From Flavobacterium sp. (lineage in GTDB: Bacteria > Bacteroidota > Bacteroidia > Flavobacteriales > Flavobacteriaceae), in the NCBI GenBank assembly GCA_023259675.1, contig JALRGT010000005.1, positions 30,363 through 94,362 of the forward strand: a DNA stretch of 64,000 nt, read 5' to 3'. A program made the translations under genes and the position numbers. Positions 1 to 24,585 of this stretch are shown piece by piece. Numbering within the stretch: position 1 is the stretch's first letter; the number at the start of each line of letters is the position of its first letter. The notes under the pieces were generated by a model. The model saw nothing but the letters and a program-made list of their open reading frames with translations. It was not told the DNA's origin and did not search any database.

Positions 1-1684
1 AAGCACCCCAACTGTCCATAGTTGTTTTAATTCGCTCATAACCTACCAAGATCTCTAAATTATGGTTCTCCTTAAATGAATCTCTATATGTAAGGGTATT
101 TGCCCAATCGGTTCTTGATAAATCAGTAGCGATGTTGGTTGCTACACCGTTATAAGAAGCACCCCCTCCGTGAATTGGATTTAGAAATAATTTGTTTTCG
201 AGCCCAATGGAATTCAATCCCAAACTGGTTCTAAAAGTCAATTTTTTGTTTAAATCAAACTCTCCATACAAATTTCCTAAAAATGATTTACTAATTGAAG
301 TGGTCAAATCAAGTTCTTGAACCATTGCTAAATTGTAAGCATTTATGGAACCAATAAGCGCCGGAATATTGGCTCCGTAACCTACACTTATTCCGTTTTG
401 AATGCTATAAGATCCATCCGGATTGTAAACAGGTACATTGGGAGGCAAAACATAAGTCATTCTTCCCAAAGGTTCATTAGTGATATACTCTGTGTTATAG
501 GTAGATGAAGACAAGGTATTACCCGCAACGGCACCCGTATTTGGCCCTACGTTTTTTGCTCTACTATAAGAAACATTGGCACCAGCCCTAATAAAATTAT
601 TGACCTTATGACTGATGTTTAATCGTGTCATGTAATTTTGAAACGTATTGTTTTTTATAAAACTATTTTGGTTTGTATAGTCTACAGAAAAATAATATTG
701 AGTCGTTTCATTAGCTCCCGAAATGTTAATATTGTGATTGCTCGAAAAACCCGGTTCGTAAGCCACATCATACCAATTCGTATTTACCGTACTTCCATCG
801 GGATTGGTAGCCAAGAAAAAACCAGGTGCTTTACCGGCATTGACCAAGGCTTCATTTTTTATCATAGTATAATCTTCTGCATTCAATAATTTTGGTAAAT
901 TATAAGGTGTGCTTCGACTGAACCAGCTGTTGTAATTGAATTTAGTGGTACCTTTTTTACCTTTTTTGGTGGTAATTACCATAACGCCATTTGCTGCTCT
1001 AGAGCCATAAATTGCGGCAGCCGAAGCATCTTTCAACACATTGATGGACTCAATATCATTGGGGTTAATTCCAGAAAGTGGATTGTTACCAACAAATCCA
1101 CCCAATGAACCGGTAAAAACAGCCACACCATCTACCACTATTAAAGGAAAAAGCCCAGATGTAATCGTATTTAAACCTCGAACCCGGATAACAGGTGTGT
1201 TATTCAATACACTAGTAGATTGAATAACATCGATTCCCGTTCCTTGACCGCCTAATAATTGATCAAAACTGGCTGAAGGACGGTTCTGTAATTGCTTGGC
1301 TGAAACTGTGGAAACGGAACCGGAAAACTCAGATTTTTTCTGGGATAAATACCCACTCGAAATTAGGATTTCATCTAATTGATTAGAGTCTTTAAGTAGT
1401 CTCACTGTTAATAAATCAAAAGAGTGTACCACAATTTCCTGTGTTTGATATCCAATATAACTCAATTTTAATGTAAATGGCAATTTTTGATTTTGAATAA
1501 CAAATTCGCCATTTTTATTGGTTGTAGTTTCTTCAATTTTTGAATGAACCGTTGCCCCAACCAGAGGCAAATTGTTTTTGGCATCTACGACTATTCCTTT
1601 CAAATTTTGTTGTTGCGCATTCATCATCGCAGTAAACAAAAAGAAAAAACAGATCAGTAACTTTAAATATTTTTTTCGTAACAT
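1..1684 (-). CDS. SusC/RagA TonB-dependent receptor, 5' part (runs off left edge; missing from ORF track)
   Basis: Manual translation from ATG at 1684: MLRKKYLKLLICFFFLFTAMMNAQ (signal peptide)...LPLVGATV...LSYIGY...INPNDIESINVLKDASAAAIYGSRAANGVMVITTKKG (SusC plug signature); same frame still reads as protein at bases 1-61. Confidence 0.93.
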   Translation of the reverse strand, partial: MLRKKYLKLLICFFFLFTAMMNAQQQNLKGIVVDAKNNLPLVGATVHSKIEETTTNKNGEFVIQNQKLPFTLKLSYIGYQTQEIVVHSFDLLTVRLLKDSNQLDEILISSGYLSQKKSEFSGSVSTVSAKQLQNRPSASFDQLLGGQGTGIDVIQSTSVLNNTPVIRVRGLNTITSGLFPLIVVDGVAVFTGSLGGFVGNNPLSGINPNDIESINVLKDASAAAIYGSRAANGVMVITTKKGKKGTTKFNYNSWFSRSTPYNLPKLLNAEDYTMIKNEALVNAGKAPGFFLATNPDGSTVNTNWYDVAYEPGFSSNHNINISGANETTQYYFSVDYTNQNSFIKNNTFQNYMTRLNISHKVNNFIRAGANVSYSRAKNVGPNTGAVAGNTLSSSTYNTEYITNEPLGRMTYVLPPNVPVYNPDGSYSIQNGISVGYGANIPALIGSINAYNLAMVQELDLTTSISKSFLGNLYGEFDLNKKLTFRTSLGLNSIGLENKLFLNPIHGGGASYNGVATNIATDLSRTDWANTLTYRDSFKENHNLEILVGYERIKTTMDSWGA

Positions 1685-1809
1685 AATTATAAGTATTGAT
1701 TTTAATATTAAAATTTAAACTAACAAAGAAGTTTGTAATTAACATTTATAACAGCAGTAATGCTAATATACTTTGTGCATATACTTTCATTTGCTATTTT
1801 ATTATTCGT

Positions 1810-2316
1810 TTAAATTTGATGATTACTCGTTTGAGCATTTGCAGCAAATTTTTGCTGTTCTTTTTTCAAATTCATTTCGATGTAATAACTCTCATTATAT
1901 TTTCCAGCAATAACAAGGGCACCCGCAACCAAAACAAGATTTTTTATAATGTATTGGCCTATCATGGTTGGTTCGTAAGGAAATATCTCAAAACAGCTGG
2001 ATTGTAGAATAAAGAAAGGAGTGAGGGTTGCTATCATGTGTAATAACAGCAATACAATAGCTGTAGGAATCAATTTCCTAATTAATAATCCTAATCCAAT
2101 CAAGACTTCACAAATTCCAAGAATTGGAATAAAAAATTCTGGTCTAAACCAAAAAACGGTTTTCTCTACCAAATCACCGGCAGGACTCATTCCGAAAATT
2201 TTCAGAATTCCAAACCAAATATATATTATCGATAGGGCAGTGCGCATTAAGTTGACACCGTGTTTCCCCATTTTATTACTTAACAAGAAATAGAAAAAAT
2301 TAAAAGTAGTTTTCAT
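1810..2316 (-). CDS. DoxX/DUF417 (RclC-like) inner-membrane protein
   Basis: Four hydrophobic segments; LMRTALSIIYIWFGILKIF and GQYIIKNLVLVAGAL resemble DoxX/DUF417 motifs. Confidence 0.7.
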   Translation of the reverse strand: MKTTFNFFYFLLSNKMGKHGVNLMRTALSIIYIWFGILKIFGMSPAGDLVEKTVFWFRPEFFIPILGICEVLIGLGLLIRKLIPTAIVLLLLHMIATLTPFFILQSSCFEIFPYEPTMIGQYIIKNLVLVAGALVIAGKYNESYYIEMNLKKEQQKFAANAQTSNHQI

Positions 2317-2362
2317 TTGTTTCGAATTTTGGATAATAAATCATTAGAACAAAGTGTTTATA

Positions 2363-3565
2363 TTAAAGCATTGTTAGCTTCATCTTTTTGCTTAAATTAA
2401 ATCGGTAAGAATATCCTAAATTAATAGAATAGTCAGCGAAAGCAGCATCTCCTTGGACATGCACATATTTGGAAGGATCAGTGATAACTGAATTTAGTAA
2501 ATTCTGACGGGCAATATCAGCAGCACTTTGAATACGGTTTTTTACAATATTGTAAGGAATAAATAAGCTAAAATTATGTTTTCCTACATGATAAGAAAAG
2601 CCATATTCTATCGCCACAACGTATCCAGGGCGACGATAGGCAACTTGTCCCCCAAAAGCATCATAGGCAGGAATGCCTTCAACTCTTCCGGCCAATGAAA
2701 CATTAAAATTCTCTTTTTTGTCTACTGCAACCGATAAACCTGCTCTTGCAAAATATTGGTCAGGACAAGCATAAATTTCATAACCTTCTAAACCTGCTTT
2801 TGGCGCTGATTTAAATGTGCCATTCGATTCCTTTGGGTTGAATAAATAATAACCATTTGCAAATCCGTAAAGGCGTTCAGTTAATTGTCGGAATACTTGA
2901 ATTTCTGCAGTAATTCCAACTCCGCCATCTCCTGGCTGAATGGCTTGATCCATTACAACTCTTTTTGTTGTTCCATCGGTTTGCGGTGCATCATCCATTT
3001 TGTCATGGCTACCAGTATTTAATTTTAATCCTAATCCTAACATTAAATTACCTTTATGAGTCGTTTTTGGATCAAAAAACCAATAGTTTACGCTGATTCT
3101 GGCGTCTCCAATACCTTGTGCATAAACACTGTACCGAAGGGTGTCTTTTATGGGGGTTGATTGTTTTAGAACCTGAGAGCGTTCATTATGCACATAAGGC
3201 AAAGTGGCATTTATCTGTATTCTATTGGTTATTCCGTAAGATAAATTAAAATCTATCGCATTCGAATAAATGTTTACGGCATTGCCTCGCTCTACACCAT
3301 TTTCGTCATGTCCACCACCCGTAGTTTGACGGTGTAATTGTTCTTCTTTACCAACAAAATGTCTCCAAGAATGAAAATATCGGTAATTTGTCCCTATTTG
3401 AAATTCGCCTTTGTCTAAATTATATGAACTGGCAGAATTCATATTAAGCCCACCCATTTGGCGAACAGCTACACAACCTTGTGCTGTAATTTTTTCTGTT
3501 TTTAAAGTGATTAAAATAAAAGTGATTAAAATAAATGCAGTATATAGAAATGAAATTTTTTTCAT
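2363..3565 (-). CDS. Putative outer-membrane beta-barrel / transporter of unknown substrate
   Basis: Signal peptide then QGCVAVR; alternating aromatic/hydrophobic strands; INLGYSYRF beta-signal-like segment near the C-terminus. Confidence 0.6.
   Translation of the reverse strand: MKKISFLYTAFILITFILITLKTEKITAQGCVAVRQMGGLNMNSASSYNLDKGEFQIGTNYRYFHSWRHFVGKEEQLHRQTTGGGHDENGVERGNAVNIYSNAIDFNLSYGITNRIQINATLPYVHNERSQVLKQSTPIKDTLRYSVYAQGIGDARISVNYWFFDPKTTHKGNLMLGLGLKLNTGSHDKMDDAPQTDGTTKRVVMDQAIQPGDGGVGITAEIQVFRQLTERLYGFANGYYLFNPKESNGTFKSAPKAGLEGYEIYACPDQYFARAGLSVAVDKKENFNVSLAGRVEGIPAYDAFGGQVAYRRPGYVVAIEYGFSYHVGKHNFSLFIPYNIVKNRIQSAADIARQNLLNSVITDPSKYVHVQGDAAFADYSINLGYSYRFNLSKKMKLTML
3504..3533. repeat. 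Perfect 15-bp tandem duplication (AAAGTGATTAAAATA x2) in the signal peptide
   Basis: Seen directly; encodes FILIT-FILIT on the minus strand. Confidence 0.9.
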
Positions 3566-3963
3566 GATTTGTATATGTTTTTAAAAGAAATTTAAATGTT
3601 GAAGTTTTGAATTCATAAAATGAATTATCCCCAATTGGTTTCGCTTTCCAAAAGAAGAATAAATCGTACAATAATCGGGTAGTAAATTTTACAAACAAAT
3701 TACATAAGCTTGATAAAACATGAAATTGTTTAGGAACAAGATAAGGGATGTTGTCAAATATTGATTTGCCAATTAAGAGTTCCTAAAAACAATTCGTTAC
3801 AAGATCTTTTGAACCGTGTAAGTATTGTTTTTAAGAACTATAACATCTACAAAGTATAAATAATAACTTTTAGAAAATGGCTACTAATATGAAATCAACA
3901 AATCAATAATTGACTCAGAATGTGAGACAATAACTATTCTCTTAACATGTTTTGTTGAAATTT

Positions 3964-6900
3964 TTAATTGATTTTAACGCTTTGTAAAAACGAATTGTTT
4001 TTAGTAACCAAAAGATAGCTTTTTCCCTTAACACTAATTTTTTCCATGTTTTTAACATCTCCTGGAGTAAAAAATCCGCTATCAATTGCTGAAATCGATT
4101 TGAATTTTCCTTTGCCATCTCCTTTCAACAGTAATCCATGACCGGCATCGTTTCGAGGCGTTTCTACTTCGGAATTGAACATGTTTCCACTTATTAAAAC
4201 ATCGAGTTTGCCATCTTTATCATAATCATCTATCATTATTTGATTGATGCAACTAAGTTGAGCATCAACCGGAAGTTCATGGATTATGAATTTGCCGTTT
4301 TTATTTTCTAAATAAATACTGGCAAATGACTTTACTTTATAATGTAAGGCTTCTTTAAGTGATTTCTCTGTATAAACATCGACCAAGGTAGCTTCAGAAA
4401 AACTTTCGTAATCTTTGAATTTCTTCTTGATATTTGGAATTTGTTGAGACGAACAACCACGACCACGCACAGGATATTGCTTGCCGTCATTGTAGTAACT
4501 CAACACGATGTCTTTGTGTTTATCGTTATCAAAATCTTTAACAAAAATATCAAAGGTTTCTTCGGGAGTGGCTTTGTATTTGTAATTCAAGCCATTATTT
4601 CCAACGATATAATCCATGTCTCCATCATTATCAAAATCACCTTGTTGAATGCTCCACCACCAACCGGTAGTATCAACAGTTAGTCCAAGTTCTTCTGAAA
4701 CTTCTTTGAAACCTGTTTTAGTATTTTGAAAAATACGGATTGGCATCCATTCGCCCACAATAATGATATCATCCAATTTGTCATTATTAAAATCGGTAAT
4801 TACGGCACTTGTAGCCATACCTAAATCGACAAATTCTTTGGGTGCTTTTTTAGAAACTTCAAATTTTGGTTGTGATGCCGTGCTAATATTATGCAATAAA
4901 TAAGTAGTTGCCGGTGACGGATATTGTCCCGGAACTTGTCTTCCTAATACTAAAAGGTCTTGCTTTCCATCTTTATCATAATCTATTGGATACGCTTTTG
5001 AACCACTTGTTAGCATCGTTGGCAGTACTCCTTTTTGCGCTTTGGTAAAATCGCCTTTTCCGTTATTGAGGTATAATCTGTCTTGTAATTTTGGGTCGTT
5101 AACCAAAAATTCATAACCACCACTCACTACATATAAGTCATTGTCACCATCATTATCGGCGTCAAAAATAACAACTCCAGTATCTTCGCTAGAATTATCA
5201 TCTTCTAGTGCTTGTATTTTTTTCTCTACAAACCCATTTTTAGTTTGCATAAACACTTTAGCAGAAAATGTAGCGGCACCTCCTATGATGTAATCATCAA
5301 GTCCATCTTTATTTAAATCTCCGACAGCAATAGCTGGACCAAAAGTTGACATTTTGTGAGGTAATAAAACTTGATCTTTAAAATCATCATACTTATTTTC
5401 TTCGTGTTTAAAAACGGGAAACACACTGTCTTCAGTTGTAAACAAAGGGGCTTTAGTAGTTATTTTCGCTGCCGTTTCATCTTTGGCATCTTGCTCTTTA
5501 AAGCTTAGTGTTTGGTTTGCTTTTACATTGTATAATTTTTGCACCTTACCATTAGTCCAAACTACTTTAACTTCATCAATTGTAATGTCTTTTGCTACAC
5601 CAAAATGCAATTCGGGAGCCACAGACGATTGAAAACCTCTGGATAAAGTAAGCTCTTGCATCTGGGTTCCTTTTTTGGTTTTTACATAAACACGATTCCC
5701 TAGACCAGAAGTGTTTTTTGAACTTCCTTCAAATTTTACTTTAATGTAATTATTGAAATTAGAACTTGAATTTTCAAAAACAGAGGCATAATCGTCAATA
5801 TTATTTACCACCAAATCTAAATCGCCATCGTTATCTAAATCGGCATAAACTACACCATTTGAAAAACCTTTATATTCAATTCCCCATTTTTCATTTACTT
5901 GTTCAAAATTTAAATTTCCTTTATTTTGAAACATAAAATTATCAATTTTCTCTGAAGGAATTTCTTGAGATTTTTTAAGTAAGTCTTTTGGTTTTAAATT
6001 TAAAGCTTCTAAACTATGAAAGAAATCATTGTTATTAATTTCTCTTCTGGTACCATTGGTTATAAACAAATCTTTATTCCCGTCATTGTCAAAATCCGCA
6101 AATAAAGGCCCCCAACTCCAATCTGTAGAAGAAGTTCCAGTAATACGAGATACATTGCCAAAATGAGGTATACCTTCTTCATTAACGCCTGTATTCAACT
6201 GCATGCAATTGTGCATGTATTGGTAATTAAAACCGGCATCTACTACATCCCAAAAAAGTTGTGGATTCATACTGGACATGTTCGCTTTTTTGCGACGATT
6301 GTCTTTGGCATCCATATCTACCTGAAAAATATCTAAATTTCCATCGTTGTTAAAATCGGAAACATCTGCACCCATTCCGTAAAAAGAATTATGGGATGTC
6401 GCCTCTTTTACCACTTCCTTAAAAGTACCATCATGGTTGTTGATGTACATGAAATCAGGAGAATTGAAATCATTGGAAACATATATATCAGGCCAGCTGT
6501 CATTGTTTAAATCTCCAACTGTTGCACTTAATGATAACCCATAGGCTTTTACACCAGCCTCTTCGGTAACATTTGCAAAATGGTCACCATCATTTCGGTA
6601 TAGATGCCCTGATTCATTGTCTTTGACATGGCGCATCATCTGTACATAATCACTAGTTGCCGAACTAAATTTGGTAGGGGGGTAGTTGGCTACAAATAAA
6701 TCCAAATCGCCATCTTTATCATAATCAAAAAATGTTCCCTGGACACTGTTTCCGATATCATCAATACCGTATTCTTTGGCTTTTTCCGTAAACGTTCCAT
6801 TGCCATTATTGATATACAATTCATTGTTTTTCGTTCCAAATTTTCCTCCTACGCTACAATAAATATCTAAAAAACCATCACCATTTACATCCGCCATAGT

Positions 6901-7284
6901 GACTCCAGTGTACCAACGGGTATCACCTTCAACACCAGCTTTTTCAGTAATGTCTTCAAATTTTAGATTGCCTTTGTTTAAATACAATTTATTTGACACC
7001 TGATTCCCTGTAAAAAAGAGATCTACCAGGCCATCATTATTAATATCTCCTGTTGCAACCCCTCCTCCCATATAAATATAATTATAGGTAAAGTAATTCA
7101 AGGAATCATTTTCTATCAAGTTATTGCTAAAATCAATCCCTGTATCGGAACGGTCTAATGTAGAAAATATCTTCTCACTTGAATCTTTTGTAGAACAGTT
7201 AATAAGCAATAATAAGCTTAATAGGCTAAAAATAACTGCTTTCATTTTTCTATTTTTCATCTTTATAATAATAAAATTTATCAT
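3964..7284 (-). CDS. FG-GAP/VCBS-repeat + ASPIC/UnbV lipoprotein (two propeller regions)
   Basis: Lipobox LLLLINC; many DxNxDGxxD repeats; ASPIC/UnbV-like RGFQSSVAPELHFG; true start may be a downstream Met. Confidence 0.9.
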   Translation of the reverse strand: MINFIIIKMKNRKMKAVIFSLLSLLLLINCSTKDSSEKIFSTLDRSDTGIDFSNNLIENDSLNYFTYNYIYMGGGVATGDINNDGLVDLFFTGNQVSNKLYLNKGNLKFEDITEKAGVEGDTRWYTGVTMADVNGDGFLDIYCSVGGKFGTKNNELYINNGNGTFTEKAKEYGIDDIGNSVQGTFFDYDKDGDLDLFVANYPPTKFSSATSDYVQMMRHVKDNESGHLYRNDGDHFANVTEEAGVKAYGLSLSATVGDLNNDSWPDIYVSNDFNSPDFMYINNHDGTFKEVVKEATSHNSFYGMGADVSDFNNDGNLDIFQVDMDAKDNRRKKANMSSMNPQLFWDVVDAGFNYQYMHNCMQLNTGVNEEGIPHFGNVSRITGTSSTDWSWGPLFADFDNDGNKDLFITNGTRREINNNDFFHSLEALNLKPKDLLKKSQEIPSEKIDNFMFQNKGNLNFEQVNEKWGIEYKGFSNGVVYADLDNDGDLDLVVNNIDDYASVFENSSSNFNNYIKVKFEGSSKNTSGLGNRVYVKTKKGTQMQELTLSRGFQSSVAPELHFGVAKDITIDEVKVVWTNGKVQKLYNVKANQTLSFKEQDAKDETAAKITTKAPLFTTEDSVFPVFKHEENKYDDFKDQVLLPHKMSTFGPAIAVGDLNKDGLDDYIIGGAATFSAKVFMQTKNGFVEKKIQALEDDNSSEDTGVVIFDADNDGDNDLYVVSGGYEFLVNDPKLQDRLYLNNGKGDFTKAQKGVLPTMLTSGSKAYPIDYDKDGKQDLLVLGRQVPGQYPSPATTYLLHNISTASQPKFEVSKKAPKEFVDLGMATSAVITDFNNDKLDDIIIVGEWMPIRIFQNTKTGFKEVSEELGLTVDTTGWWWSIQQGDFDNDGDMDYIVGNNGLNYKYKATPEETFDIFVKDFDNDKHKDIVLSYYNDGKQYPVRGRGCSSQQIPNIKKKFKDYESFSEATLVDVYTEKSLKEALHYKVKSFASIYLENKNGKFIIHELPVDAQLSCINQIMIDDYDKDGKLDVLISGNMFNSEVETPRNDAGHGLLLKGDGKGKFKSISAIDSGFFTPGDVKNMEKISVKGKSYLLVTKNNSFLQSVKIN

Positions 7285-7372: not shown

Positions 7373-9583
7373 TTATATACAAATAGAAGATTTCGCACCA
7401 GCAGTTGGAAAAACTGTTCTTTTAATATCAACTTTTGAAAAGTTATTTTCTCCCTCAATAATTTTAATGTATTGATTTGGCTGAATGTTTTTAAACACTT
7501 TCTTCTTATGACTTTTTGGCCAAGTAATTTCGATTTGGTCAATGATTGTAGCTTGTCCAATTCCGATTTCCATTCTTAAAGCCGATGCCCCAAAACTTCC
7601 GCCTGAATTTAATATCCTATATACAGATCTGGAAACACCATTTTCTTTGAAACTGACTTTTATTTTGGTTCCAATTGCGGAACGATTGGTATCTGTACCT
7701 TCTAATTGCAATTTTATCCAACGGTTGTTGTTTTGACCCGGATTGAGGTATAGGGAATTATAAAAGGAATCTCCAATATAGGCACCACCAATTTCTGCAA
7801 AAATGTCGGCATCACCATCATTGTCCAAATCATTAAAAGCTACACCATGACCTTTTTGTAAATTTCCTACTCGACTGGAAACAGTAACATCTGCAAATTT
7901 TCCGTTGCCCATATTCCGGAATAATTTATTTGGAGTAAGCGATTTATAGTCAGGATTTCCAGTACCAAGATACATGTCCAAAAAGCCATCATTATCGATA
8001 TCTCCAAAATTAGACCCCATTGCGAATACAGTTTTATGTAAACCTGCTTCTTGAGAAACATCAGTAAAAGTACCATCATGGTTATTGTGGTACAAATACA
8101 TTTTACTGCCGTCATTGGCAAAACCTAATGCTTCCATAGCAATATTACCCGCAATAGAACCTTGATATTGATAACCACAAACAAAAAGATCTTGCCAGCC
8201 ATCATTATCATAATCCCAAAACCAAGTTGGGAAAGTTAACACTTTGAGTTCTCCTAAACCTGCTTGATCTGTAACATCTATAAATTGAGGAATATCATTT
8301 TTGTTTCCCATGTTTTTCAACAAAATTTTCTTTTTATTCATACCAGAAAGAAACAAATCAACATCTCCATCATTGTCATAATCTGCTGATGTAACTCCTT
8401 TAATAAAACTAACAACGTCACATTTGGCAAGTTTGGCAACATTTTTAAAAGTCCCGTCTTGATTATTCAAATACAATTCGCAAGGGTATGAATTTTCTGA
8501 TGATGATTCGTTACCAATGAATAGGTCTAAATATCCGTCATTATTGAAATCATTCCAAGTCGCTGTTTGGGTAGGAAATTCAGAATATATTCCGCTTTTA
8601 ATGGTCACGTCAGTAAAAGTACCATCACCATTATTACGTAATAAGGAATTAGGTTGTCGGCCTAATTGTTTCATCCAAGCTCCTCTCAATACAAAAATAT
8701 CAGTATCACCATCATTATCATAGTCTGCTTGAATCATATTCAAACCTCCTTTGAAACGACCTAATTGAGAAAATTTAGAAATATCTATAAAACCTCCTCT
8801 TTTATCGTTTTGATAATAGTGCATAGCACCATTCAAACTCCAGTCAGAAGTTACAATATCGAGATAATTATCATTGTTAAAATCGTCAAGAATAACCCCG
8901 CCAGATAAATTTCTGCTTTTTATACCAACGTTTGTGGCTACATCTACAAAGGGTTTTACAGTATAATCTGAATTGTTTTTATTCAAATTAGGAATTAGAT
9001 ATTGACTTGGTACTTTTGCTGGATAATCGCCCAAAGTCATATAAGCAATATTGAGCAGCCATCTTGATTCATAATCATTAGGATTTATTTCCAATAATTT
9101 TTTATATACCTCTATTGCTTTTTGAGAACCTTGTCGAATGGTATGAATTCCGTTTTTTTGTATGGGTAAGATACAGGATTCTGTATTGTGATAATTGAAG
9201 CAATTTTGTTTTTCGCCCAATCTCATATACGCAATTGCCAAATTTTTTAGTGATTCAGTGTCGTCTCTACCACCTAACTTTTTTATTTTGTCGATAACCC
9301 TTTCTAGGGTTGCTACTGACTCCGCTTCTTTACCAAGTTTCAATAATGCATTTCCTTTGTTTATTTCGTTGGAAAATTTGTAAAAACCATCTTCTGAAGT
9401 TTTAATAATGGAGTCGTAGAAAGCCAGTTCTAATTCTGTAGAGAACGGATTGTTTTTCACATCATACATTTTATTTCTAGCCTCCAAAATTCGAACCATC
9501 TTGTCATTGGGATTAGAAAAATAATCGCAAGACTGGGTTGAAATACATACTATAAATAGCAATGATAACGGTTTAAATTTCAT
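7373..9583 (-). CDS. CRTAC1-family lipoprotein (TPR-like N-terminus + FG-GAP repeats + ASPIC/UnbV)
   Basis: Likely start MKFKPLSLLFIVCISTQSC (lipobox; ORF track starts at 9649); helical N-region with Cys pair QNCFNYHNTESC; DYDNDGDxD repeats; SGGSFGASALRMEIGIG. Confidence 0.88.
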   Translation of the reverse strand: MKFKPLSLLFIVCISTQSCDYFSNPNDKMVRILEARNKMYDVKNNPFSTELELAFYDSIIKTSEDGFYKFSNEINKGNALLKLGKEAESVATLERVIDKIKKLGGRDDTESLKNLAIAYMRLGEKQNCFNYHNTESCILPIQKNGIHTIRQGSQKAIEVYKKLLEINPNDYESRWLLNIAYMTLGDYPAKVPSQYLIPNLNKNNSDYTVKPFVDVATNVGIKSRNLSGGVILDDFNNDNYLDIVTSDWSLNGAMHYYQNDKRGGFIDISKFSQLGRFKGGLNMIQADYDNDGDTDIFVLRGAWMKQLGRQPNSLLRNNGDGTFTDVTIKSGIYSEFPTQTATWNDFNNDGYLDLFIGNESSSENSYPCELYLNNQDGTFKNVAKLAKCDVVSFIKGVTSADYDNDGDVDLFLSGMNKKKILLKNMGNKNDIPQFIDVTDQAGLGELKVLTFPTWFWDYDNDGWQDLFVCGYQYQGSIAGNIAMEALGFANDGSKMYLYHNNHDGTFTDVSQEAGLHKTVFAMGSNFGDIDNDGFLDMYLGTGNPDYKSLTPNKLFRNMGNGKFADVTVSSRVGNLQKGHGVAFNDLDNDGDADIFAEIGGAYIGDSFYNSLYLNPGQNNNRWIKLQLEGTDTNRSAIGTKIKVSFKENGVSRSVYRILNSGGSFGASALRMEIGIGQATIIDQIEITWPKSHKKKVFKNIQPNQYIKIIEGENNFSKVDIKRTVFPTAGAKSSICI

Positions 9584-9651
9584 AATTAAAACATTTATGA
9601 TTGGGCTAGTCACTTTTACGTTGTGAAAGTTATTTAAAAAAAACTTCATTA

Positions 9652-11130: not shown

Positions 11131-11305
11131 CTTGATAATTTTATATGGTTTTATTAATAGATTTCTTTTCAATTAGAATTAATTGAGTGTTGGATGTTAA
11201 ATTTTAAATGAGCAAATTCAATCTTAAGTTAAACACTAAAGATTTAATGCTAGAGCAAGATTTTTACTAAATCCAGTCTATTTATATTTAACATCAAAGG
11301 AAATA

Positions 11306-15154: not shown

Positions 15155-15180
15155 AGAACTTATTGTTTTAAATATAAAAA

Positions 15181-15223
15181 TATTGTAGTGGTAATTATTT
15201 ATACAAACAGTACCACTACAATA
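15181..15223. other. 13-bp perfect inverted repeat (TATTGTAGTGGTA / TACCACTACAATA, 17-nt loop)
   Basis: Seen directly in the susD-VCBS intergenic region. Confidence 0.75.
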
Positions 15224-15230
15224 AATTAAT

Positions 15231-15256
15231 AAACAGCGCATATTAATGCGCTGTTT
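15231..15256 (-). terminator. Hairpin after susD (probable intrinsic terminator or mRNA-stabilising stem)
   Basis: AAACAGCGCAT-ATTA-ATGCGCTGTTT perfect 11-bp stem, weak U tract on minus strand. Confidence 0.7.
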
Positions 15257-15295
15257 ACCTAAATAACTAACTAACTCAAACTAACATCAAATCGT

Positions 15296-16794: not shown

Positions 16795-19700
16795 TTAAAA
16801 TGTAACGTCAAGACCAAAAATCACTGATTTTGGTTGTGGATATCTTCCTATATCAATTCCTGCAGAATTGGCATTACCATCTACACGTGCAATTTCAGGA
16901 TCTAAACCAGAATATTTTGTAAGAGTAACAAGGTTTTGTCCACTTAAATATAATCTTACATTAGAAAAGTACTTCTTAAATGTGTCACCTGATAATGAAT
17001 ATCCTACAGTAATATTTTTTAATCTTGCATAAGAGCCATCTTCAACATATCGTTGACTAGCTGAAGACCAGTTTTGAGTTGCACCAAGCGCTCTAGGTAT
17101 TGTAGCCGATGAATTGGTAACAACTCCATTTGAAACAATTGCTCGATCTAAAACATCAGTACTCGCGTTAAATAAACGTTGCATAGCCTGTAAATCAAAT
17201 ATATTTGCGTTAAAAACATCATTTCCTTGAACTCCTGTTATAAAACAGTTAAAATCGAATTTTTTATACGCTGCGGTAAGGTTTAAACCGTATGTGAAAT
17301 TCGGATATGGATTTCCAATATTTGTTTTGTCTTCTGAGTTGATTACCTTATCACCATTACGGTCAACAAATCGTATATCACCAGGTCCATAAGTTGTTTG
17401 ACCCGGAGCTAAAACAGCATCTACTTCTGCTTGGTTTTGATATATTCCATCGGTTTCATAACCCCAAAAATAGAATGCCGGTTGACCCACTTCCAGTCTC
17501 GAGAAGTTTTCTAAACCAGCTCTTCCTGAAGGTCCGCCTAAAACACTGGTTACACCAGGAGCTAAATCTGTTACTTCATTTTTGTTAGTACCTATATTAA
17601 GTGTAGCTGACCAAGTAAAATCTCCTTTTCGGTCATTGTAACCTAATGATACTTCAATTCCGCTTCCTTTCATATCAGCAACATTTTGAGTCTGAAATCC
17701 ATCACCTATACCTACAGAAGCAGGAAGAGGTACTCGAAAAAGAATATCAGTCGCTTTATTGTTAAAATATTCGAAAGATCCTGTGAATTGTTCATTGAAT
17801 AAACCAAAATCCAAACCTATGTTTCTTTCATTTTTAGACTCCCATCTCAAATTAGGATTTGCAGCACCTCCTGCTGTAACACCAATTGCAGCAACCCCAT
17901 CAATTGGGTAAGTATAATTAGATGCTAAAGTAGGACTATATTGATAATCGCCAATTCTATCATTACCGGTTGTTCCTGCACTCGCTCTAAGCTTTAATGT
18001 ACTAAAAATAGAATTTTCCATAAAGCTTTCTTTTGCCATATTCCAACCTAAAGCAAGAGAGTAGTAATTACCATAACGGTAATTAGATCCAAAACGAGAA
18101 GAACCATCTCTACGTCCTGATACAGCAAAGATATATTTGTCGTCATAATCATAATTAATACGAGCAATATAACCTAAATTATTAGTCTCAGAATTAGAAG
18201 AACTCAAATTTGCATTTTGAAGACTCAACTGATCAATTTCATCTGAAATTAAGTTGCGACTACCGGCAACCAAGTTCTGGAACTTACTCTCAATTTTTGT
18301 TACAACTCCTAATACTTCAAAATTATGTTTATCGGCAATAGTAGTTTTGTATGTTAAACCATTATCAAAAACGATGGTTTGGCCTATAGAATTTGTTTCA
18401 TTAGTTGACGAATATGCCTGATTATGGGCGGTACCATCACTATAGCTAGGAACAAAAGTATGATCTTTACTGGTAAAATAATCTAAGGAAACTTGAGATC
18501 TAAATTTTAAGCCTTTGTAAAGTTCTAATTCAGCAAATATGTTTCCTATTATAGATAATCCATTAATTTTTTGATATCCATGATTTGCAACACGTAAAGG
18601 GTTTTCTGCATCTTGTCCATCAGATGTAGAAGGACCTTGATATCCACCTAGATTATTTTCATTGTAAATAGGTAAATAAGGAGCACTTTTAATAGCATGC
18701 TCCAATAGGGTTCTACCTCCGGCACTACGCTCTGGACTAGTTTTGTTAAAGGATAATCCAATACTACTTCCTACAGTTAATTTACCTACGGTTTGTGTAT
18801 TATTAGATCTGAAAGAGTAACGTTCAAAACCGGTATTGATAAGAGCTCCTTCTTGTTTTAAATAGCCACCAGAATAACGACTTGTAGAAGTTTCGGAACC
18901 ACTTGAGTAACTCAAATTATAATCTTGCATTAAGCCTGTCTGGAAAATTTTGTCTTGCCAATTGGTATTTCTATTACCAAATTCAGCAGCTCTTGCCGTT
19001 AAATTACTTCCTAAATCATTAGCATACTGAATATATTGTTGTGTATTTAAAACATCATATCTTTTGGTAACTGTTTGAGAACCTACGTAAGAACTAAAAT
19101 TTAATTGGCCAGGACCTTGTTTTCCTTTTTTCGTAGTTACCATAATTACCCCATTAAAAGCTTTTGCACCATATAAAGCTGTTGTTGAGGCATCTTTTAA
19201 AACCGACATGGATTCAATGTCACTAGGATTTAGCCCGGATAAGTTCCCTACCAAAACTCCATCAATTACGTATAAAGGCGCACTATTATTCATTGTAGCT
19301 AAACCACGAATTTGTACTGTAGGGCTTGAACCTGGAGCTCCATTTACCACCGTAACACCTGCCGCTCTACCCTGTAAAGCTGACTCTGCGTTAGTGATTG
19401 GAACTGCTACAATATCTTTTGAGGTTACCGTTGAAATAGCTCCAGTTACTTTACTTCTCTTTTGAGTACCGTAAGCTACTACTACAACTTCACTTAAGCT
19501 TTGTGTAGATTCTGCTAATTTTACATTAATGACAGTTTGACCACCAAGAGTAATTGTTTGTGACATCAAGCCAATATAAGAGAAAGTTATTTTGTCTGTG
19601 GCATTAACTCCTTTTAAAGAGTACTTACCATCAAAATCAGTTGAGGCGCTATTTTTTGTACCTTCTACATTAATACTGGCACCAGGCAAAGGAAATCCTG

Positions 19701-19803
19701 CCGAATCGGTAACCACACCCTGTATGGTCTTTGATTGTGCCATTATATTCTGACTGCTAATTATTAGCAATGCGATTATTGCAAATTTTAGTTTTAACAT
19801 CAT
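16795..19803 (-). CDS. SusC/RagA TonB-dependent receptor
   Basis: DIESMSVLKDASTTALYGAKAFNGVIMVTTKKG plug motif; ends in F; directly upstream of susD. Confidence 0.97.
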   Translation of the reverse strand: MMLKLKFAIIALLIISSQNIMAQSKTIQGVVTDSAGFPLPGASINVEGTKNSASTDFDGKYSLKGVNATDKITFSYIGLMSQTITLGGQTVINVKLAESTQSLSEVVVVAYGTQKRSKVTGAISTVTSKDIVAVPITNAESALQGRAAGVTVVNGAPGSSPTVQIRGLATMNNSAPLYVIDGVLVGNLSGLNPSDIESMSVLKDASTTALYGAKAFNGVIMVTTKKGKQGPGQLNFSSYVGSQTVTKRYDVLNTQQYIQYANDLGSNLTARAAEFGNRNTNWQDKIFQTGLMQDYNLSYSSGSETSTSRYSGGYLKQEGALINTGFERYSFRSNNTQTVGKLTVGSSIGLSFNKTSPERSAGGRTLLEHAIKSAPYLPIYNENNLGGYQGPSTSDGQDAENPLRVANHGYQKINGLSIIGNIFAELELYKGLKFRSQVSLDYFTSKDHTFVPSYSDGTAHNQAYSSTNETNSIGQTIVFDNGLTYKTTIADKHNFEVLGVVTKIESKFQNLVAGSRNLISDEIDQLSLQNANLSSSNSETNNLGYIARINYDYDDKYIFAVSGRRDGSSRFGSNYRYGNYYSLALGWNMAKESFMENSIFSTLKLRASAGTTGNDRIGDYQYSPTLASNYTYPIDGVAAIGVTAGGAANPNLRWESKNERNIGLDFGLFNEQFTGSFEYFNNKATDILFRVPLPASVGIGDGFQTQNVADMKGSGIEVSLGYNDRKGDFTWSATLNIGTNKNEVTDLAPGVTSVLGGPSGRAGLENFSRLEVGQPAFYFWGYETDGIYQNQAEVDAVLAPGQTTYGPGDIRFVDRNGDKVINSEDKTNIGNPYPNFTYGLNLTAAYKKFDFNCFITGVQGNDVFNANIFDLQAMQRLFNASTDVLDRAIVSNGVVTNSSATIPRALGATQNWSSASQRYVEDGSYARLKNITVGYSLSGDTFKKYFSNVRLYLSGQNLVTLTKYSGLDPEIARVDGNANSAGIDIGRYPQPKSVIFGLDVTF

Positions 19804-20415: not shown

Positions 20416-20442
20416 AATACTATTTAAGATTTCATTTGCTTA

Positions 20443-23400
20443 TTAAGTTATTGTTTGTTTATTATGTGTAGGTAAATACCCGTATTTTTCTTTATAGCAT
20501 TTTGTAAAATAAGAAGGAGAACTAAAACCAACTTTATAGCTAATCTCGGTTATATTATCGTTACCCAACTCTATTAATTCTTTGGCTTTTTCTAAACGAA
20601 CATTGCGAATAAATTCATTTACTGATACGCCAGTTAGGGATTTAATTTTTCGATACAATTGGCTTCTACTCAGAAACACCTTAGAAGCCAAAACTTCAAC
20701 ACTTAACTCCGATTCACTAATGTTTTCATTAATGTAATTTAGGGCATTTTTAATAAATTCATTATCTAAAGTGGTTGTTTTTTCTTTTGCTTTTGGAGTA
20801 ATTCCATTGTAGTACTTATTAAACATGATTTGTCTGCTGTTAATCAACTGTACTAAACTAGATCTTAAAATATCCATGTCAAAAGGTTTACTTAAATAGA
20901 TATCCGCACCAGAATCAATCCCTTCTAATCGATCTTTAATTAATGCTTTTGCAGATAGCATCATTAACGGAATATGACTGGTTTTTAAATTGGCTTTAAT
21001 GTTTTTACACAACTCTAAACCATTCATAACAGGCATAATTACATCTGTTAAAATCAAATCAGGTAGTTTCTGCAAAGCTAACTCTAAACCAACTTGACCA
21101 TTCTCTGCTACTATAACTTTATATTCTTTTTTGAGTTCATTTTTTAAATAATTTCGCAGTTCTACGTTGTCTTCAACAATCAAAATTGTATAAACTCGAT
21201 TTTGTTTTTCCTGTTCATCTTGTGACTGAATATCCTCTTGTTCAATAATAGGTGTGAAACTTATTTTTTTCTCCTTTTTAAATTCCTCTAGCAGTATTTC
21301 GGTTTCATTAAAAAACTCCTTTCCAATAGGAAATAATAGTTTAAAAGTTGTACCAACGCCTAATTCACTTTCTACTTCAATTATTCCTTTATGTAAATCC
21401 ACAAATCCACGAACAACTTCCAGTCCGATCCCTGTACTTCCATAATAAGCTTTATTTAAATTATTTACTTGATAAAAACGGTCAAAAATTTTCTTAATAT
21501 CTTTTTTTTCTAATCCAGCACCTGTGTCTTCAACAATAACCTCAAAATACGGATTAGTACTATCTGAACTTATCAAAGGAAAAGGAAGTACTTCTTCGTT
21601 AACCACTATTTTTATAATTATTTTTCCATTATCTGGAGTAACCTTAAAAGCATTTGAAATGACATTAAAAATAATTTTCTCAAACATTTTAGGGTCAATC
21701 CAGTCTTTTAAGAATGCTTTATTAGACTCAAACTCCAACAAAATTCCACGACTGAATGCTTCTTCATCAAAATAACTGACAATTTCTTTTGTAAAACTAA
21801 CGACCTCAATTTTTTGTAATTTCAGTGTCATTTTATTAAACTGTAGTTTATTAAAATCCATTAACTCATTGATTAATCTTGAAAGCCTATCGGAACTTTT
21901 TTGAATAGTTAGCAATTTATTCAATACACCCTCTGGCAATTCCAAACTATTATTCTTGATTATATCTGCTAAAGGATTTAAAATTAAAGTAAGCGGAGTT
22001 CTAAACTCATGGGAGATATTTGTGAAGAATTGTAATTTTTTATTGTTTAATTTTTCAATTTGAATAGCTTTATTCTTTTCAAATTCTATCATTTGTTTTT
22101 GTTTAAAACGATTTTGATAGTATTGATTGGCAAAATGAATCGCTGCGAATAGTAATAGGGAATAGAATAGATAGGCAAAAGAAGTCTTCCACCAAGGTGG
22201 CAAAATTTCAATTCTTAGTTCTAAGGGAGTTTGACTCCAAACTCCATTTTTTTCGGCTGCTTTAACCTTGAAAATATAGTTGCCTGGTGCTAAGTTTGTA
22301 TAAGTTGCCGAGTGTTTATTGCCAACATAATTCCACGAAGCCTCGAAGCCTTGTAAGTAATAAGCGAATTCATTTCTAGCGGGATAAGAATAATTAACAG
22401 CAATAAAATCAATTGTAAAGACGGACTGATCATGTTTAAGGATTATTTTTTTTGTTTCGGATATTACTTTTATTAATGGCGAGTTTTTTTCAAGTGGTTC
22501 AACTGATTTTTTAAAAAGTTTAAGATCGGTAAAATAAATTGAAAGCTGTTTTTTACTTTTAACTAAATCCGCAGGATTAAAGTAGTTTAAACCTTCATAA
22601 CCTCCAAAATAAAGCAATCCATTTTCATCTTTTAGAACTGAATTGTTATTAAAATCATTTCCTAACAAACCATCATATGTAGAATAATTAACGGAAGTTT
22701 TGTTTTTTAAATCCAGTCTGGTGATTCCTTTCTTTCCGCTAATCCAAATTCCTCCATCGTTGGATTCTAAAATGGACGAAATTGATTTTTCATGGAGCCC
22801 TTTGAAGTTTATATACCATTTTAGGACCTTTGTTTTTTTATTGTAGCTAAACAATCCAGCACCATCAGTACCAATCCAAATTTCTTTGTTTTTTGTCTCA
22901 TATAAACTATTAATCGTATGCGTACTTTTATGATTTTTAAGCTTTTCAGACATTTTGTCTCGAAAAGAGGTCACTGAAAAAGAAACAAAATCTTTCGTGT
23001 TAACCTTGTATAAACCGGTTGTTGATCCGACCCAAACAGCATCATCTGAATCTACTATCACTTTTCGGATGTCTGAATTCATTAGTCCATTTTCATAAAA
23101 TGGCTTAGAATTACAATGGTGAAATTGACCATCTGAGGGTGTATAATAATGTAAGCCTTTTGAAAAAGTTGCTATCCAAATTACACCTCTAGAATCTTCA
23201 GCAATACCCATAATATTGTTTGAGGCCAAATTAGGAGTGTTTTTTGTATTGTAATTAATAAAGTTTTTACTTCCTTTCTTTAAAACAAAAATCCCCTCAT
23301 TCCAGCTGGATAGCCAAATATTCTCTTTTTTATCAATAAATACTTTTGTGATGTTATCGTTGGTTAATCCAGAATATAAGCTAGTGTCTGATTTGGTAAT

Positions 23401-24585
23401 ATGTTTAAAGCTTTTAGTTGTAGGATTGTAAATATCGACACCTCCGCCTTCCATAGAAATCCATAGCTGTCCTTTATTGTCTTTGGCAATACCGGTAACA
23501 CAATTGGTTTGTAATGATTGTGGATTTCCAAACAAACTTTCGATACCATTTATCGGACTGTTTATCTTATCAAAAAACCCCAAACCCTTGTTATAATAGC
23601 CCAACCAAACTTTATTCTCTTTATCTAAAAATAAAGACCAAATAGAATTTGAACTTAAACTGCGATTATTGTATTTACTGTTAACATATTTTTTTTGAAT
23701 AACTCCTTGGTCGTTAACAATGATTAAGCCATCATTTTCTGTAGCACAAAGAATGGTTTTAGCATCCATTGCCAGTATTGACATAATTCTTTTTTTGGTA
23801 ATAGGGTAGGAATCAGCCTTTTTTACTTTAGAATATAAATCTGCCTTAATCAGTCCTTTATATCCATTGCCAATCCACAAGTTTTGCTTACTGTCAAAAA
23901 ACATAGACACAATATTTCCAGATAGTATTTTATTGTCTGTTCCAATGTCTACTTTTTTAATCTCATTGTTTATCGGGTCAACTACTTTTAACCCCAAGTT
24001 GGTACCTAAATAAATAATCCCTTTTTTGTCTTTTGCTAAGCAATTGATAAGATAATTTGTGGAGTTTGGGATATCCAGCTTAATCGTAGTAATTTTTCGA
24101 GATTTAATATTTAATTTTAGTAAACCACTATTAAACGTTCCTAAAAATAGATTACCTCTATTATCTTCAATTATACTTTTAACAGAAATTACGTTTTCTT
24201 TTTTTAATTTTTTTTGAATATCAATATTTTCAAAAGTATTTAAATTTCGATTATAAAGGCACAATCCCTCATCAGTGCCTATCCACAACCGGTTGCGTAA
24301 ATCTACGTAAGTAGTATAAATTATATTGCTATTTATAGAATTACTAAGGTTAGAGTCTTGCTCATAAGCTATAAAATTGGTCCCATCATATTTATATAAA
24401 CCGGCTCCATTCGTTCCAATCCACATAATCCCAAATTGATCCTGTGAAATGGTATAAATGCCACTTTTTGAAGTCTCATTATCTAATAATCTAAATTGAT
24501 GGTTTTCAAATGTATTTTGAGAAAACAAACTATTTGTTATAAAAAATAAGAGGACAACTACTCTAAAACAATTTTTTGAGGACAT
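20443..24585 (-). CDS. Hybrid two-component sensor kinase / response regulator (propeller, Y_Y_Y, HisKA, HATPase, REC, AraC HTH)
   Basis: FFTNISHEFRTPLTLI, GSTGIGL, PDLILTDVIMP, VGFSSPSYFTKCYK. Confidence 0.97.
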   Translation of the reverse strand: MSSKNCFRVVVLLFFITNSLFSQNTFENHQFRLLDNETSKSGIYTISQDQFGIMWIGTNGAGLYKYDGTNFIAYEQDSNLSNSINSNIIYTTYVDLRNRLWIGTDEGLCLYNRNLNTFENIDIQKKLKKENVISVKSIIEDNRGNLFLGTFNSGLLKLNIKSRKITTIKLDIPNSTNYLINCLAKDKKGIIYLGTNLGLKVVDPINNEIKKVDIGTDNKILSGNIVSMFFDSKQNLWIGNGYKGLIKADLYSKVKKADSYPITKKRIMSILAMDAKTILCATENDGLIIVNDQGVIQKKYVNSKYNNRSLSSNSIWSLFLDKENKVWLGYYNKGLGFFDKINSPINGIESLFGNPQSLQTNCVTGIAKDNKGQLWISMEGGGVDIYNPTTKSFKHITKSDTSLYSGLTNDNITKVFIDKKENIWLSSWNEGIFVLKKGSKNFINYNTKNTPNLASNNIMGIAEDSRGVIWIATFSKGLHYYTPSDGQFHHCNSKPFYENGLMNSDIRKVIVDSDDAVWVGSTTGLYKVNTKDFVSFSVTSFRDKMSEKLKNHKSTHTINSLYETKNKEIWIGTDGAGLFSYNKKTKVLKWYINFKGLHEKSISSILESNDGGIWISGKKGITRLDLKNKTSVNYSTYDGLLGNDFNNNSVLKDENGLLYFGGYEGLNYFNPADLVKSKKQLSIYFTDLKLFKKSVEPLEKNSPLIKVISETKKIILKHDQSVFTIDFIAVNYSYPARNEFAYYLQGFEASWNYVGNKHSATYTNLAPGNYIFKVKAAEKNGVWSQTPLELRIEILPPWWKTSFAYLFYSLLLFAAIHFANQYYQNRFKQKQMIEFEKNKAIQIEKLNNKKLQFFTNISHEFRTPLTLILNPLADIIKNNSLELPEGVLNKLLTIQKSSDRLSRLINELMDFNKLQFNKMTLKLQKIEVVSFTKEIVSYFDEEAFSRGILLEFESNKAFLKDWIDPKMFEKIIFNVISNAFKVTPDNGKIIIKIVVNEEVLPFPLISSDSTNPYFEVIVEDTGAGLEKKDIKKIFDRFYQVNNLNKAYYGSTGIGLEVVRGFVDLHKGIIEVESELGVGTTFKLLFPIGKEFFNETEILLEEFKKEKKISFTPIIEQEDIQSQDEQEKQNRVYTILIVEDNVELRNYLKNELKKEYKVIVAENGQVGLELALQKLPDLILTDVIMPVMNGLELCKNIKANLKTSHIPLMMLSAKALIKDRLEGIDSGADIYLSKPFDMDILRSSLVQLINSRQIMFNKYYNGITPKAKEKTTTLDNEFIKNALNYINENISESELSVEVLASKVFLSRSQLYRKIKSLTGVSVNEFIRNVRLEKAKELIELGNDNITEISYKVGFSSPSYFTKCYKEKYGYLPTHNKQTIT

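Follow-up and report, generated by a model that had tools for sequence, protein, structure and literature searches.

Xylan polysaccharide utilization loci (PULs) of Bacteroidota combine a hybrid two-component sensor (HTCS) and a SusCD importer with GH10, GH43, GH8, GH3 and esterase genes. All of these are found in or beside the locus described here, which lies in a stretch of 64,000 nucleotides of Flavobacterium sp. (assembly GCA_023259675.1, contig JALRGT010000005.1, positions 30,363 to 94,362 of the forward strand), hereafter the window. The locus differs from such PULs in having giant ASPIC/UnbV lipoproteins in the slot of the binding proteins and an inserted cassette, headed by a small leader open reading frame (ORF), that codes for a haloperoxidase-like enzyme. 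The vanadium haloperoxidases (VHPOs) esVHPO (9PTR), NapH1 (3W35/3W36), XhnO11 (9L8X) and NapH3 (8CXL) share with this enzyme the DUF6851 plus VCPO_2nd scaffold (ca. 28 to 30% identity), the vanadate ligands and an export signal. ZgVIPO1 of Zobellia galactanivorans (4CIT/4USZ), like the window enzyme, comes from Bacteroidota and has a PPFP-x-Y-x-SGH site; as far as the entry 4CIT tells, it was solved as an iodoperoxidase. Finally, CutF (Rhodobacter) and CruR (Bordetella) are exported leaders that gate downstream genes by stalling (PMC9426467, PMC9973294).

In an initial annotation, the genes of positions 1 to 24585 had been taken for a PUL free of carbohydrate-active enzymes (CAZymes), that is, for a single ligand-induced SusCD-haloperoxidase system. 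Very probably, the architecture is instead one of two gene layers, a likely-xylan PUL and a mobile cassette. The best explanation that we can offer, still a tentative one that falls a little short of being probable, is that a likely-xylan PUL has received a mobile, leader-controlled haloperoxidase cassette that would consume H2O2 with halide in the envelope. Directly observed are the genes that the locus contains, the CAZymes on its flanks, the existence and distribution of two independent gene sets, and the site residues of the enzyme together with its modeled fold. The features are as follows, the eleven ORFs of the minus strand being given in their order from 24585 to 1:

20443..24585, minus strand: HTCS of the host PUL (likely xylan), with Reg_prop, Y_Y_Y, HisKA, HATPase, receiver and AraC domains
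16795..19803, minus strand: SusC1 TonB-dependent importer (TIGR04056, 847.8 bits, cut-off 368)
15296..16783, minus strand: SusD1 lipoprotein (PF07980, PF14322)
15228..15259, minus strand: 14-bp hairpin 3' of susD1, terminator- or stabilizer-like
11876..15241, minus strand: ASPIC-A, giant double-propeller ASPIC/UnbV lipoprotein of 1121 residues, likely start 15154 (FG-GAP_3, UnbV_ASPIC)
11306..11842, minus strand: leader ORF of 178 residues, candidate CutF/CruR-like cis regulator, head of the cassette (hydrophobic N-terminal segment, C-terminal Pro-Pro)
9652..11172, minus strand: exported haloperoxidase-like enzyme, likely start 11130 (DUF6851, PF21167, E 3e-51; VCPO_2nd)
7373..9649, minus strand: TPR-ASPIC, lipoprotein of 758 residues with TPR and a single ASPIC/UnbV propeller, likely start 9583 (FG-GAP_3, UnbV_ASPIC)
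3964..7284, minus strand: ASPIC-C, giant double-propeller ASPIC/UnbV lipoprotein of 1106 residues, member of the host PUL (FG-GAP_3, UnbV_ASPIC)
2363..3565, minus strand: predicted COG4313/FapF-type outer membrane barrel of 400 residues and 12 strands, cassette member (structure model; Atlas PF13557 clusters, 0.98)
1810..2316, minus strand: DUF417/DoxX-like four-helix membrane protein, cassette member (PF04224, 33.2 bits, cut-off 27; hydropathy)
1..1684, minus strand: 5' part of SusC2 (1049 residues), which runs on leftward past the window edge (NCBIfam profile and contig left of the window)
-2931 to -1483 (left of the window), co-oriented with SusC2: SusD2, on the continuation of the contig
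-5371 to -3206 (left of the window), co-oriented with SusC2 and SusD2: GH3 (Pfam)
25072..26562, minus strand: GPH-family sugar:cation symporter of the host PUL, upstream of the HTCS and co-oriented with it (PF13347 and TIGR00792 above cut-off)
26853..28967, plus strand: protein with a DUF255 thioredoxin part and an (alpha/alpha)6 part (PF03190)
30010..46616, plus strand: GH8, esterases, GH9, GH3 and BD-FAE, the hemicellulose-degrading arm of the host PUL (Pfam)

Domains of the window proteins were assigned with Pfam and NCBIfam, and those of the flanks with Pfam rather than dbCAN. The eleven co-oriented genes are as initially annotated, and so are the HTCS, the susC-susD pair and the second susC, the three FG-GAP plus ASPIC/UnbV lipoproteins (each with a lipobox-type Cys and 6 to 13 DxDxDG-type loops, by eye and without SignalP), the secreted enzyme with its three complete motifs, the DoxX-like protein and, as a prediction from its model, the beta-barrel. 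What had been overlooked is the role of the 178-residue ORF, and also the conserved hairpin after susD1. The absence of CAZymes holds within 1 to 24585, where Pfam found none, and fails beyond it. To the left, past the co-oriented SusD2 and GH3, the other strand codes for GH10, a GH127 fragment, GH31, DUF3237, GH43-CBM6 and a second GH3; to the right, past the HTCS, there are the GPH symporter, the DUF255 gene, GH8, six esterases, GH9, GH3 and a BD-FAE protein. Such CAZymes beyond the window edge had been named beforehand as the finding that speaks against a CAZyme-free system, and they account for the HTCS-SusC1-SusD1 part. With a tandem susC-susD and its regulator, a second susC-susD pair and CAZymes on both sides, the locus has the makeup of a PUL, and the case illustrates that the placing of a window edge may be enough to give an ordinary xylan locus the appearance of a CAZyme-free one.

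The importer and the enzyme keep different company. We collected 80 metagenome loci with susD1 orthologues, many of them close kin, of which 24 with less than 3 kb downstream were dropped. Xylan-type CAZymes or the GPH symporter were found in 43 of the remaining 56 and a haloperoxidase in 12. At 65% identity or more (n=40), 11 loci had the enzyme, 4 had ASPIC only and 25 neither, with xylan-type CAZymes or symporter in 31; below 65% (n=16), the corresponding counts were 1, 13 and 2, with xylan-type genes in 12. The genes accompanying susD1 orthologues are GH10, GH43, GH8, GH3 and esterases, the GPH symporter travels along with them, and HTCS orthologues adjoin SusC1/D1 in xylan loci. In 12 other Flavobacteriaceae genera (the 12 matches above 50% identity among 250 genomes), ASPIC-C orthologues (63 to 69%) flank SusC1/D1 in nine, eight of them without the enzyme, and a haloperoxidase was present in one. 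ASPIC-A orthologues sit after susD1 in marine loci without haloperoxidase, where the order is susD1, ASPIC-A, ASPIC-C, a lipoprotein and GH10. Judging from these co-occurrences, on which the substrate assignment is based, HTCS-SusC1-SusD1 with ASPIC-A and ASPIC-C is likely a hemicellulose PUL, probably for xylan. Since the marine loci run from ASPIC-A to ASPIC-C without the enzyme, the block of leader, enzyme and TPR-ASPIC is best described as an insertion between the two, and since susD1 orthologues go mostly with xylan genes and seldom with a haloperoxidase, the importer does not appear to be dedicated to a halogenation substrate. Partial losses of the cassette also occur among the susD1 loci, which then have the leader only (L295/L296) or TPR-ASPIC only (L329).

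The closest named relatives of the enzyme are from Flavobacterium (84 to 87% identity). Orthologues at more than 70% identity were found in 5 of 150 relatives. Four relatives of the genus keep the order HTCS-susC1-susD1-leader-enzyme-TPR-ASPIC-ASPIC-C. ASPIC-A is missing from all four, the barrel, DUF417 and susC2-susD2 vary among them, and one genus relative has GH8 as the only CAZyme beside the block; in the fifth relative, the enzyme is near a contig end with no cassette upstream. Among 79 GTDB loci of enzyme orthologues, the block appeared in six, all Flavobacterium and one of them a duplicate, and most of the others had the enzyme alone. The genes therefore do co-occur in relatives, as had been initially assumed. 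A stand-alone operon without SusCD, of the form leader-(400-residue barrel)-(TPR-ASPIC)-303-residue barrel-520-residue haloperoxidase-like lipoprotein-(DUF417), is present in six genus relatives, with variants in other orders. By its context, then, what is conserved around the enzyme is a cassette with the leader at its head, widespread in Bacteroidota and independent of SusCD and HTCS. TPR-ASPIC orthologues of at least 54% identity sit with cassette genes, whereas those at 33 to 48% do not. The 400-residue barrel matched 27 genomes in a sample of 300 from the phylum; of the 20 barrel loci fetched, six had a haloperoxidase-like gene, two had leader and barrel only and the others neither. In a FastTree phylogeny of 75 rows (71 from 179 unique enzymes, three fusions and the window enzyme), which gave long-branch warnings, three well-separated haloperoxidase-like clades occupy the enzyme slot of the cassette, and a ZgVIPO-type subclade (nine rows, support 100) was found only with it. 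The literature searched, which did not extend to the primary ZgVIPO paper, held no description of this cassette.

The enzyme has the motifs K349-x6-R356P, S406-G-H408 and S466-R467-x5-H473-x3-D477 and, by eye and without SignalP, a cleavable-type signal ending in ...IFA-Q. All 80 orthologues keep K349, R356, S406, G407, H408, R467, H473 and D477 unchanged. Among proteins of solved structure, those closest to the enzyme in sequence are esVHPO (E 8e-55), NapH3, NapH1, XhnO11 and ZgVIPO. The structure model (pLDDT 72.8) has the two-helical-bundle haloperoxidase fold, with NapH3, NapH1 and XhnO11 as top Foldseek matches (E ~1e-22, TM 0.72 to 0.75), followed by ZgVIPO and CiVCPO; all 17 matches at an E value of 0.001 or below are haloperoxidase-family chains, with acid phosphatases at 0.04 or worse. 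The three-part motif with His is also that of class A acid phosphatases (PAP2), but their compact single bundle of about 230 residues was not recovered in this protein of about 490 (phosphatase chains at TMq of 0.29 or less, PF01569 below cut-off). Sequence relatives, invariant vanadate ligands and predicted fold bear out the initial annotation of a haloperoxidase-like enzyme.

Selective VHPOs require E327, K329 and S429 to hold the oxidized halide, and a K329R variant leaks HOBr (PMC12633397; the chain numbering of 9PTR is that of the paper plus 20). These esVHPO residues align with R297, G299 and H408, again invariant in 80/80 orthologues, so that, unlike in esVHPO, NapH1, XhnO11 and NapH3, the haloamine Lys is Gly, the dyad Ser is His and the gate Glu is Arg; K301 is Gln in 72/80. 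By these residues, the enzyme falls outside the selective VHPO group, and because the Glu/Lys/Ser retention set is missing, it is best read as a haloperoxidase that likely releases hypohalous acid (HOX), with the proviso that the same His serves phosphatases. As a prediction, we regard haloperoxidase chemistry as reasonably probable. Unlike the esVHPO/NapH1 group, the enzyme is not in a biosynthetic cluster, and it probably resides in the periplasm, as it has neither a type IX secretion system (T9SS) tail nor a lipobox. ZgVIPO1 belongs to a separate clade (~21% structural identity, E 2e-20), although this clade occupies the same cassette and lies beside ASPIC genes. Bacteroidota are mentioned 0 times in the portion of the AQ-VHPO survey at hand, the comparison stopping short of the VHPO preprint supplements, which may list such sequences. 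With a selective-halogenase scaffold and a non-selective site, this highly conserved subfamily offers a natural comparison for the origin of selectivity. In Zobellia and Maribacter, stand-alone orthologues (L099, L101, L103, L109, L119) follow a block resembling a cbb3 oxidase cluster (ccoNOP/fixGHIS) by eye.

ASPIC/UnbV genes accompany haloperoxidases well beyond this locus. Haloperoxidase-like genes were found with a ZgVIPO-type query in 64 of 300 sampled Bacteroidota genomes, and we used the best locus of 58 of them plus two second loci. In the sister (ZgVIPO-type) clade (43 loci of at least 35% identity), ASPIC was adjacent in 28, from seven families, and within 3 kb in 33, compared with 18 of 1360 genes in the source genome as control; the proportion adjacent or near was 1/12 in more distant haloperoxidase loci, and five loci centered on other clades. 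The six remaining genomes, read separately, gave one ASPIC-adjacent locus and five leader cassettes. Three haloperoxidase-like genes are present in the source genome, all of them linked to ASPIC and one as a T9SS-tailed fusion. Of the 120 long proteins most similar to this fusion, 114 share its architecture, a set that is biased by having been ranked on that similarity. In sister-clade SusCD loci of the genus, ASPIC is next to the haloperoxidase-like gene in 10/10, with trehalase and PfkB in those annotated. These trehalose-type loci involve another enzyme clade and another sugar, and the leader, barrel, TPR-ASPIC and DUF417 genes set the window apart from them; both systems meet in L208 and L236. 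Adjacency and natural fusions are strong indications that ASPIC/UnbV and haloperoxidase-like enzymes are functionally coupled, in line with the initial annotation, and from the neighborhood survey that it had proposed, this link emerges but SusCD does not form part of the conserved unit. Fusion and adjacency also provide a handle on the bacterial function of the domain, for which the literature searched gave none; neither did it join UnbV with haloperoxidases or with PULs, none of the UnbV papers being listed as dealing with either. UnbV is presumably linked, through E4, to the enediyne polyketide synthase (PKS) cassette, and the ORFs annotated within the locus and next to it include no PKS that could form an iterative PKS with E3/E4/E5. 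A connection of UnbV to iodine, in enediyne iodination, has reportedly been made by Gui in 2024, and is not used as evidence here.

Several further features of these proteins were noted. The fusion (L124:8519-12574) is a protein of 1351 residues with an ASPIC/UnbV propeller, DUF6851/VCPO_2nd and a T9SS tail in a GH16-containing PUL, and it recurs in the genomes G011 and G064 as well as in numerous named marine Flavobacteriaceae, where it is annotated only as an FG-GAP protein. The third unit of the source genome (L126:2541-19619) runs susC-susD-ASPIC-ZgVIPO-type enzyme, followed by GH95-like, GH27 and GH43 genes. In TPR-ASPIC, the non-structural residues R121, E124, C128, C137, R300, W303, E359, K395 and Q576-K-G-H579 (numbered from the likely start) are invariant in 32/32 homologues, which suggests a binding or catalytic site.

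The leader has one N-terminal hydrophobic segment and a Pro-Pro at its C-terminal end. All 64 leaders have Pro-Pro in the last 12 residues, 44 of them exactly three residues before the stop, compared with 7 of 577 proteins of the same size; it is encoded by 13 different codon pairs, and therefore the constraint acts on the peptide. The gene is single copy in the source genome, and the nearest named Atlas cluster, DUF2946 (0.85, 86 shared features), is a lead only. A leader profile matched 37 of 300 genomes. Of the 27 matches below E 1e-20 (301 genomes), 17 head a haloperoxidase-like gene; among the 19 that remain when eight used in building the profile are left out, 11 head a haloperoxidase-like gene, five AhpD/CMD "peroxidase-related" genes, and the last three a TonB receptor, a TPR-ASPIC gene and a MetE-like gene, respectively. 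Distant homologues mostly head TonB receptors; for the TonB receptors of cassettes, the highest scores, which stayed below cut-off, came from siderophore-type models. Contexts of the leader, 303-residue barrel and AhpD genes come from BLAST against our own reference set and partial Pfam rather than full annotation.

Like CutF and CruR, as described in PMC9426467 and PMC9973294, the leader is the first gene of an operon for exported or outer membrane proteins, with an N-terminal export segment, a near-C-terminal Pro-Pro and a long intergenic gap. It differs in its length (178 residues, above the 150-residue filter of the CutF survey), in having neither CxxC nor a Pfam match and in its clients, which are haloperoxidase-like and AhpD-like enzymes instead of copper proteins. 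Haloperoxidase, PAP2, UnbV and Flavobacterium do not appear in the part of the CutF survey supplements compared, which did not include the large gene lists that could contain the leader family. By analogy, the leader is a candidate CutF/CruR-like regulator, and we lean toward its controlling the downstream cassette in cis. The AhpD/CMD clusters under leader homologues (L268, L270, L272, L273, L274) contain two to four such genes together with an MFS carrier and either a TonB receptor or a SusC. In L274, the cluster also codes for an ASPIC/UnbV protein and an RnfD-like protein, a combination reminiscent of the UnbV/UnbU pair. In another locus (L286:638-8338), the leader and a ZgVIPO-type enzyme are followed by genes for a protein with a 3-keto-disaccharide hydrolase domain, for a porin, for a metal transporter of the ZnuA/ABC-3 type and for DoxX.

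The model of the 400-residue barrel has the 12 strands and N-terminal plug of COG4313 channels, as in Pput2725 (4RL8; Z 22.7, root mean square deviation 2.7, 259 aligned residues) and FapF (5O65; Z 22.4), from which it differs in sequence (12 to 18% identity) and in an invariant N-terminal Q-G-C. It is homologous to the 303-residue barrel (hhalign probability 89.7), which in the cassette loci inspected directly precedes the 520-residue haloperoxidase-like lipoprotein (L131:7425-9897 and at least 15 others); neither of these two proteins occurs in the source genome. An anion-selective Arg ladder was considered for the barrel and dropped, the conserved charges being balanced (12 basic and 11 acidic). 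The DUF417 protein belongs to its family and, by profile score, is only distantly RclC-like. Proteins with DUF3179 turn up repeatedly, both in leader cassettes and in a locus that pairs ASPIC with a haloperoxidase, as well as next to a remote homologue of the barrel (L146, L273, L189, L163).

In the mechanism that we favor, the HTCS would sense xylan fragments and induce susC1-susD1, and the hairpin after susD1 would damp read-through into the genes downstream. ASPIC-A and ASPIC-C could act as calcium-binding surface binding or scaffold proteins in the SusE/SGBP (surface glycan-binding protein) slot of the host PUL. The leader, exported cotranslationally, would pause at its Pro-Pro end and gate expression of the genes that follow; the signal, coming from the envelope, may be a metal or an oxyanion such as vanadate, or oxidant stress. 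The enzyme would bind vanadate, oxidize iodide or bromide with H2O2 and release HOX, with the COG4313 barrel carrying cofactor, halide or product over the outer membrane, the TPR-ASPIC lipoprotein localizing the chemistry and the DUF417 protein protecting the inner membrane. On plant material, the gain would be the management of peroxide and reactive halogens. Such a role is supported indirectly by the AhpD-like genes headed by sister leaders, by the flavobacterium Arenibacter C-21, whose iodine uptake needs glucose, oxygen and calcium and for which a haloperoxidase was proposed (PMC5064120), and by an iodoperoxidase gene of Zobellia that is induced on fresh alga (PMC9296495). The cassette thereby names candidates for the job, the cofactor supply and the regulation of Bacteroidota haloperoxidases, namely the leader, two barrel families, the receptor and the membrane protein. 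A more speculative version, which we consider doubtful, makes the Cys-free Pro-Pro leader a sensor of vanadate (or reactive halogen) and the cassette a regulon for vanadium supply and use: the TonB receptor and the COG4313 barrels would import the cofactor, three interchangeable haloperoxidase clades would use it and ASPIC/UnbV propellers would target the chemistry to glycans. If this were true, VHPOs would be a new auxiliary activity of polysaccharide digestion in Bacteroidota.

A number of results weigh against the haloperoxidase cassette as we read it. About 70 of the 79 close orthologues are outside any cassette, so the enzyme needs no partner; in its own clade, ASPIC was within 10 kb in just 8 of 58 long non-cassette loci, and giant ASPICs often occur without any haloperoxidase, against a strict partnership. 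No source of H2O2 was identified, the balanced charges of the barrel lend no support to an anion pore, and the DUF417 protein scored 23.7 bits with the RclC model NF040476, far under its cut-off of 275. As for the leader, no Pfam family matched it, CxxC was found in 0/64 of a set that is itself biased by the choice of loci, and the signal sensed may be unrelated to halogens, since leaders are likewise found at the head of operons with just a barrel or just a receptor, of a MetE-like gene and, in one case, of a Zn-type ABC system. Moreover, the cassette may here be read through from the HTCS unit, and so be under HTCS control, because TAnnTTTG, which we take to be a Bacteroidota-type promoter motif, is not conserved between hairpin and leader (1/10 loci) and the gap between the two is only 82 bases in one genome.

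The SGH-type site, common to acid phosphatases, suggests another reading of the same two-layer architecture, in which the cassette would be a phosphate-scavenging module with PAP2-type periplasmic phosphatases, barrels passing organophosphate and a phosphate-sensing leader. We judge this unlikely, even though the motif with His408 is that of acid phosphatases and PF01569 gives a weak match, the apo form of CiVCPO catalyzes dephosphorylation (as far as 3BB0 documents), the barrel keeps 11 conserved Arg and the nearest relatives include non-marine Flavobacterium, in whose habitats halide is scarce. Against it are the modeled whole-chain fold, which fits haloperoxidases and not phosphatases of ~230 residues, the iodoperoxidase assignment of ZgVIPO1, the AhpD-like genes behind sister leaders and the leader operons inspected, where BLAST and partial Pfam recognized no pho or pst genes. 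If the chemistry is that of a haloperoxidase, it could also serve plant wall digestion as an auxiliary oxidative activity, with ASPIC propellers holding the enzyme on its substrate and HOX attacking ferulate or lignin cross-links to open access for xylanases and esterases. The many esterases of the locus, the secreted ASPIC-haloperoxidase fusion in a GH16 PUL and the repeated arrival of the enzyme in xylan PULs from separate tree positions (the Flavobacterium clade, L341, L379, L070) are consistent with this idea, which nonetheless seems rather improbable: the enzyme is missing from 44 of the 56 loci of this xylan type, stand-alone orthologues have xylan-type genes nearby only modestly more often than background (9/58 versus 93/1274 genes), the sister clade is found in trehalose, mannan and other PULs without a phenolic barrier, and the window enzyme, with neither T9SS tail nor lipobox, is probably periplasmic.

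The initial annotation amounts to a model of one CAZyme-free system, induced by the HTCS, whose SusCD takes up a dedicated non-glycan substrate for selective halogenation by the enzyme. The gene order from HTCS to ASPIC-C, kept in 4/4 genus relatives and the six GTDB loci, the relative with GH8 alone beside the block and the possible read-through would all agree with it. However, CAZymes flank the locus, the importer keeps company with xylan genes and in most loci lacks the enzyme, the cassette also occurs where SusCD is absent, and the selectivity residues are missing in 80/80 orthologues. The single-system model is thus largely refuted, and we consider what is left of it very improbable. The two-layer reading, with a haloperoxidase cassette inserted into a likely-xylan PUL, remains the one that we prefer.

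The surrounding sequence yielded some minor observations. An Rfam search of positions 1 to 30000 gave no match up to E 0.5, and sigma-70 promoters and terminators were at chance (92 versus 92.5 and 8 versus 9.4, respectively). The hairpin after susD1 was found in 10/10 readable orthologous loci (11 tried). GC is even across the window (27 to 35%) and thus gives no indication that foreign DNA was recently inserted at the locus. The right end of the CAZyme cluster is marked by a truncated phage-type integrase and an ISL3 transposase (46898-49364), and the GH127 remnant of 113 residues after GH10, left of the window (L001:13248-13589), represents the remains of a broken gene. The DUF255 gene adjoins the locus in 4/4 genus relatives and in the metagenome loci L341, L353 and L364, and it is also found beside one stand-alone orthologue of the enzyme (L094).

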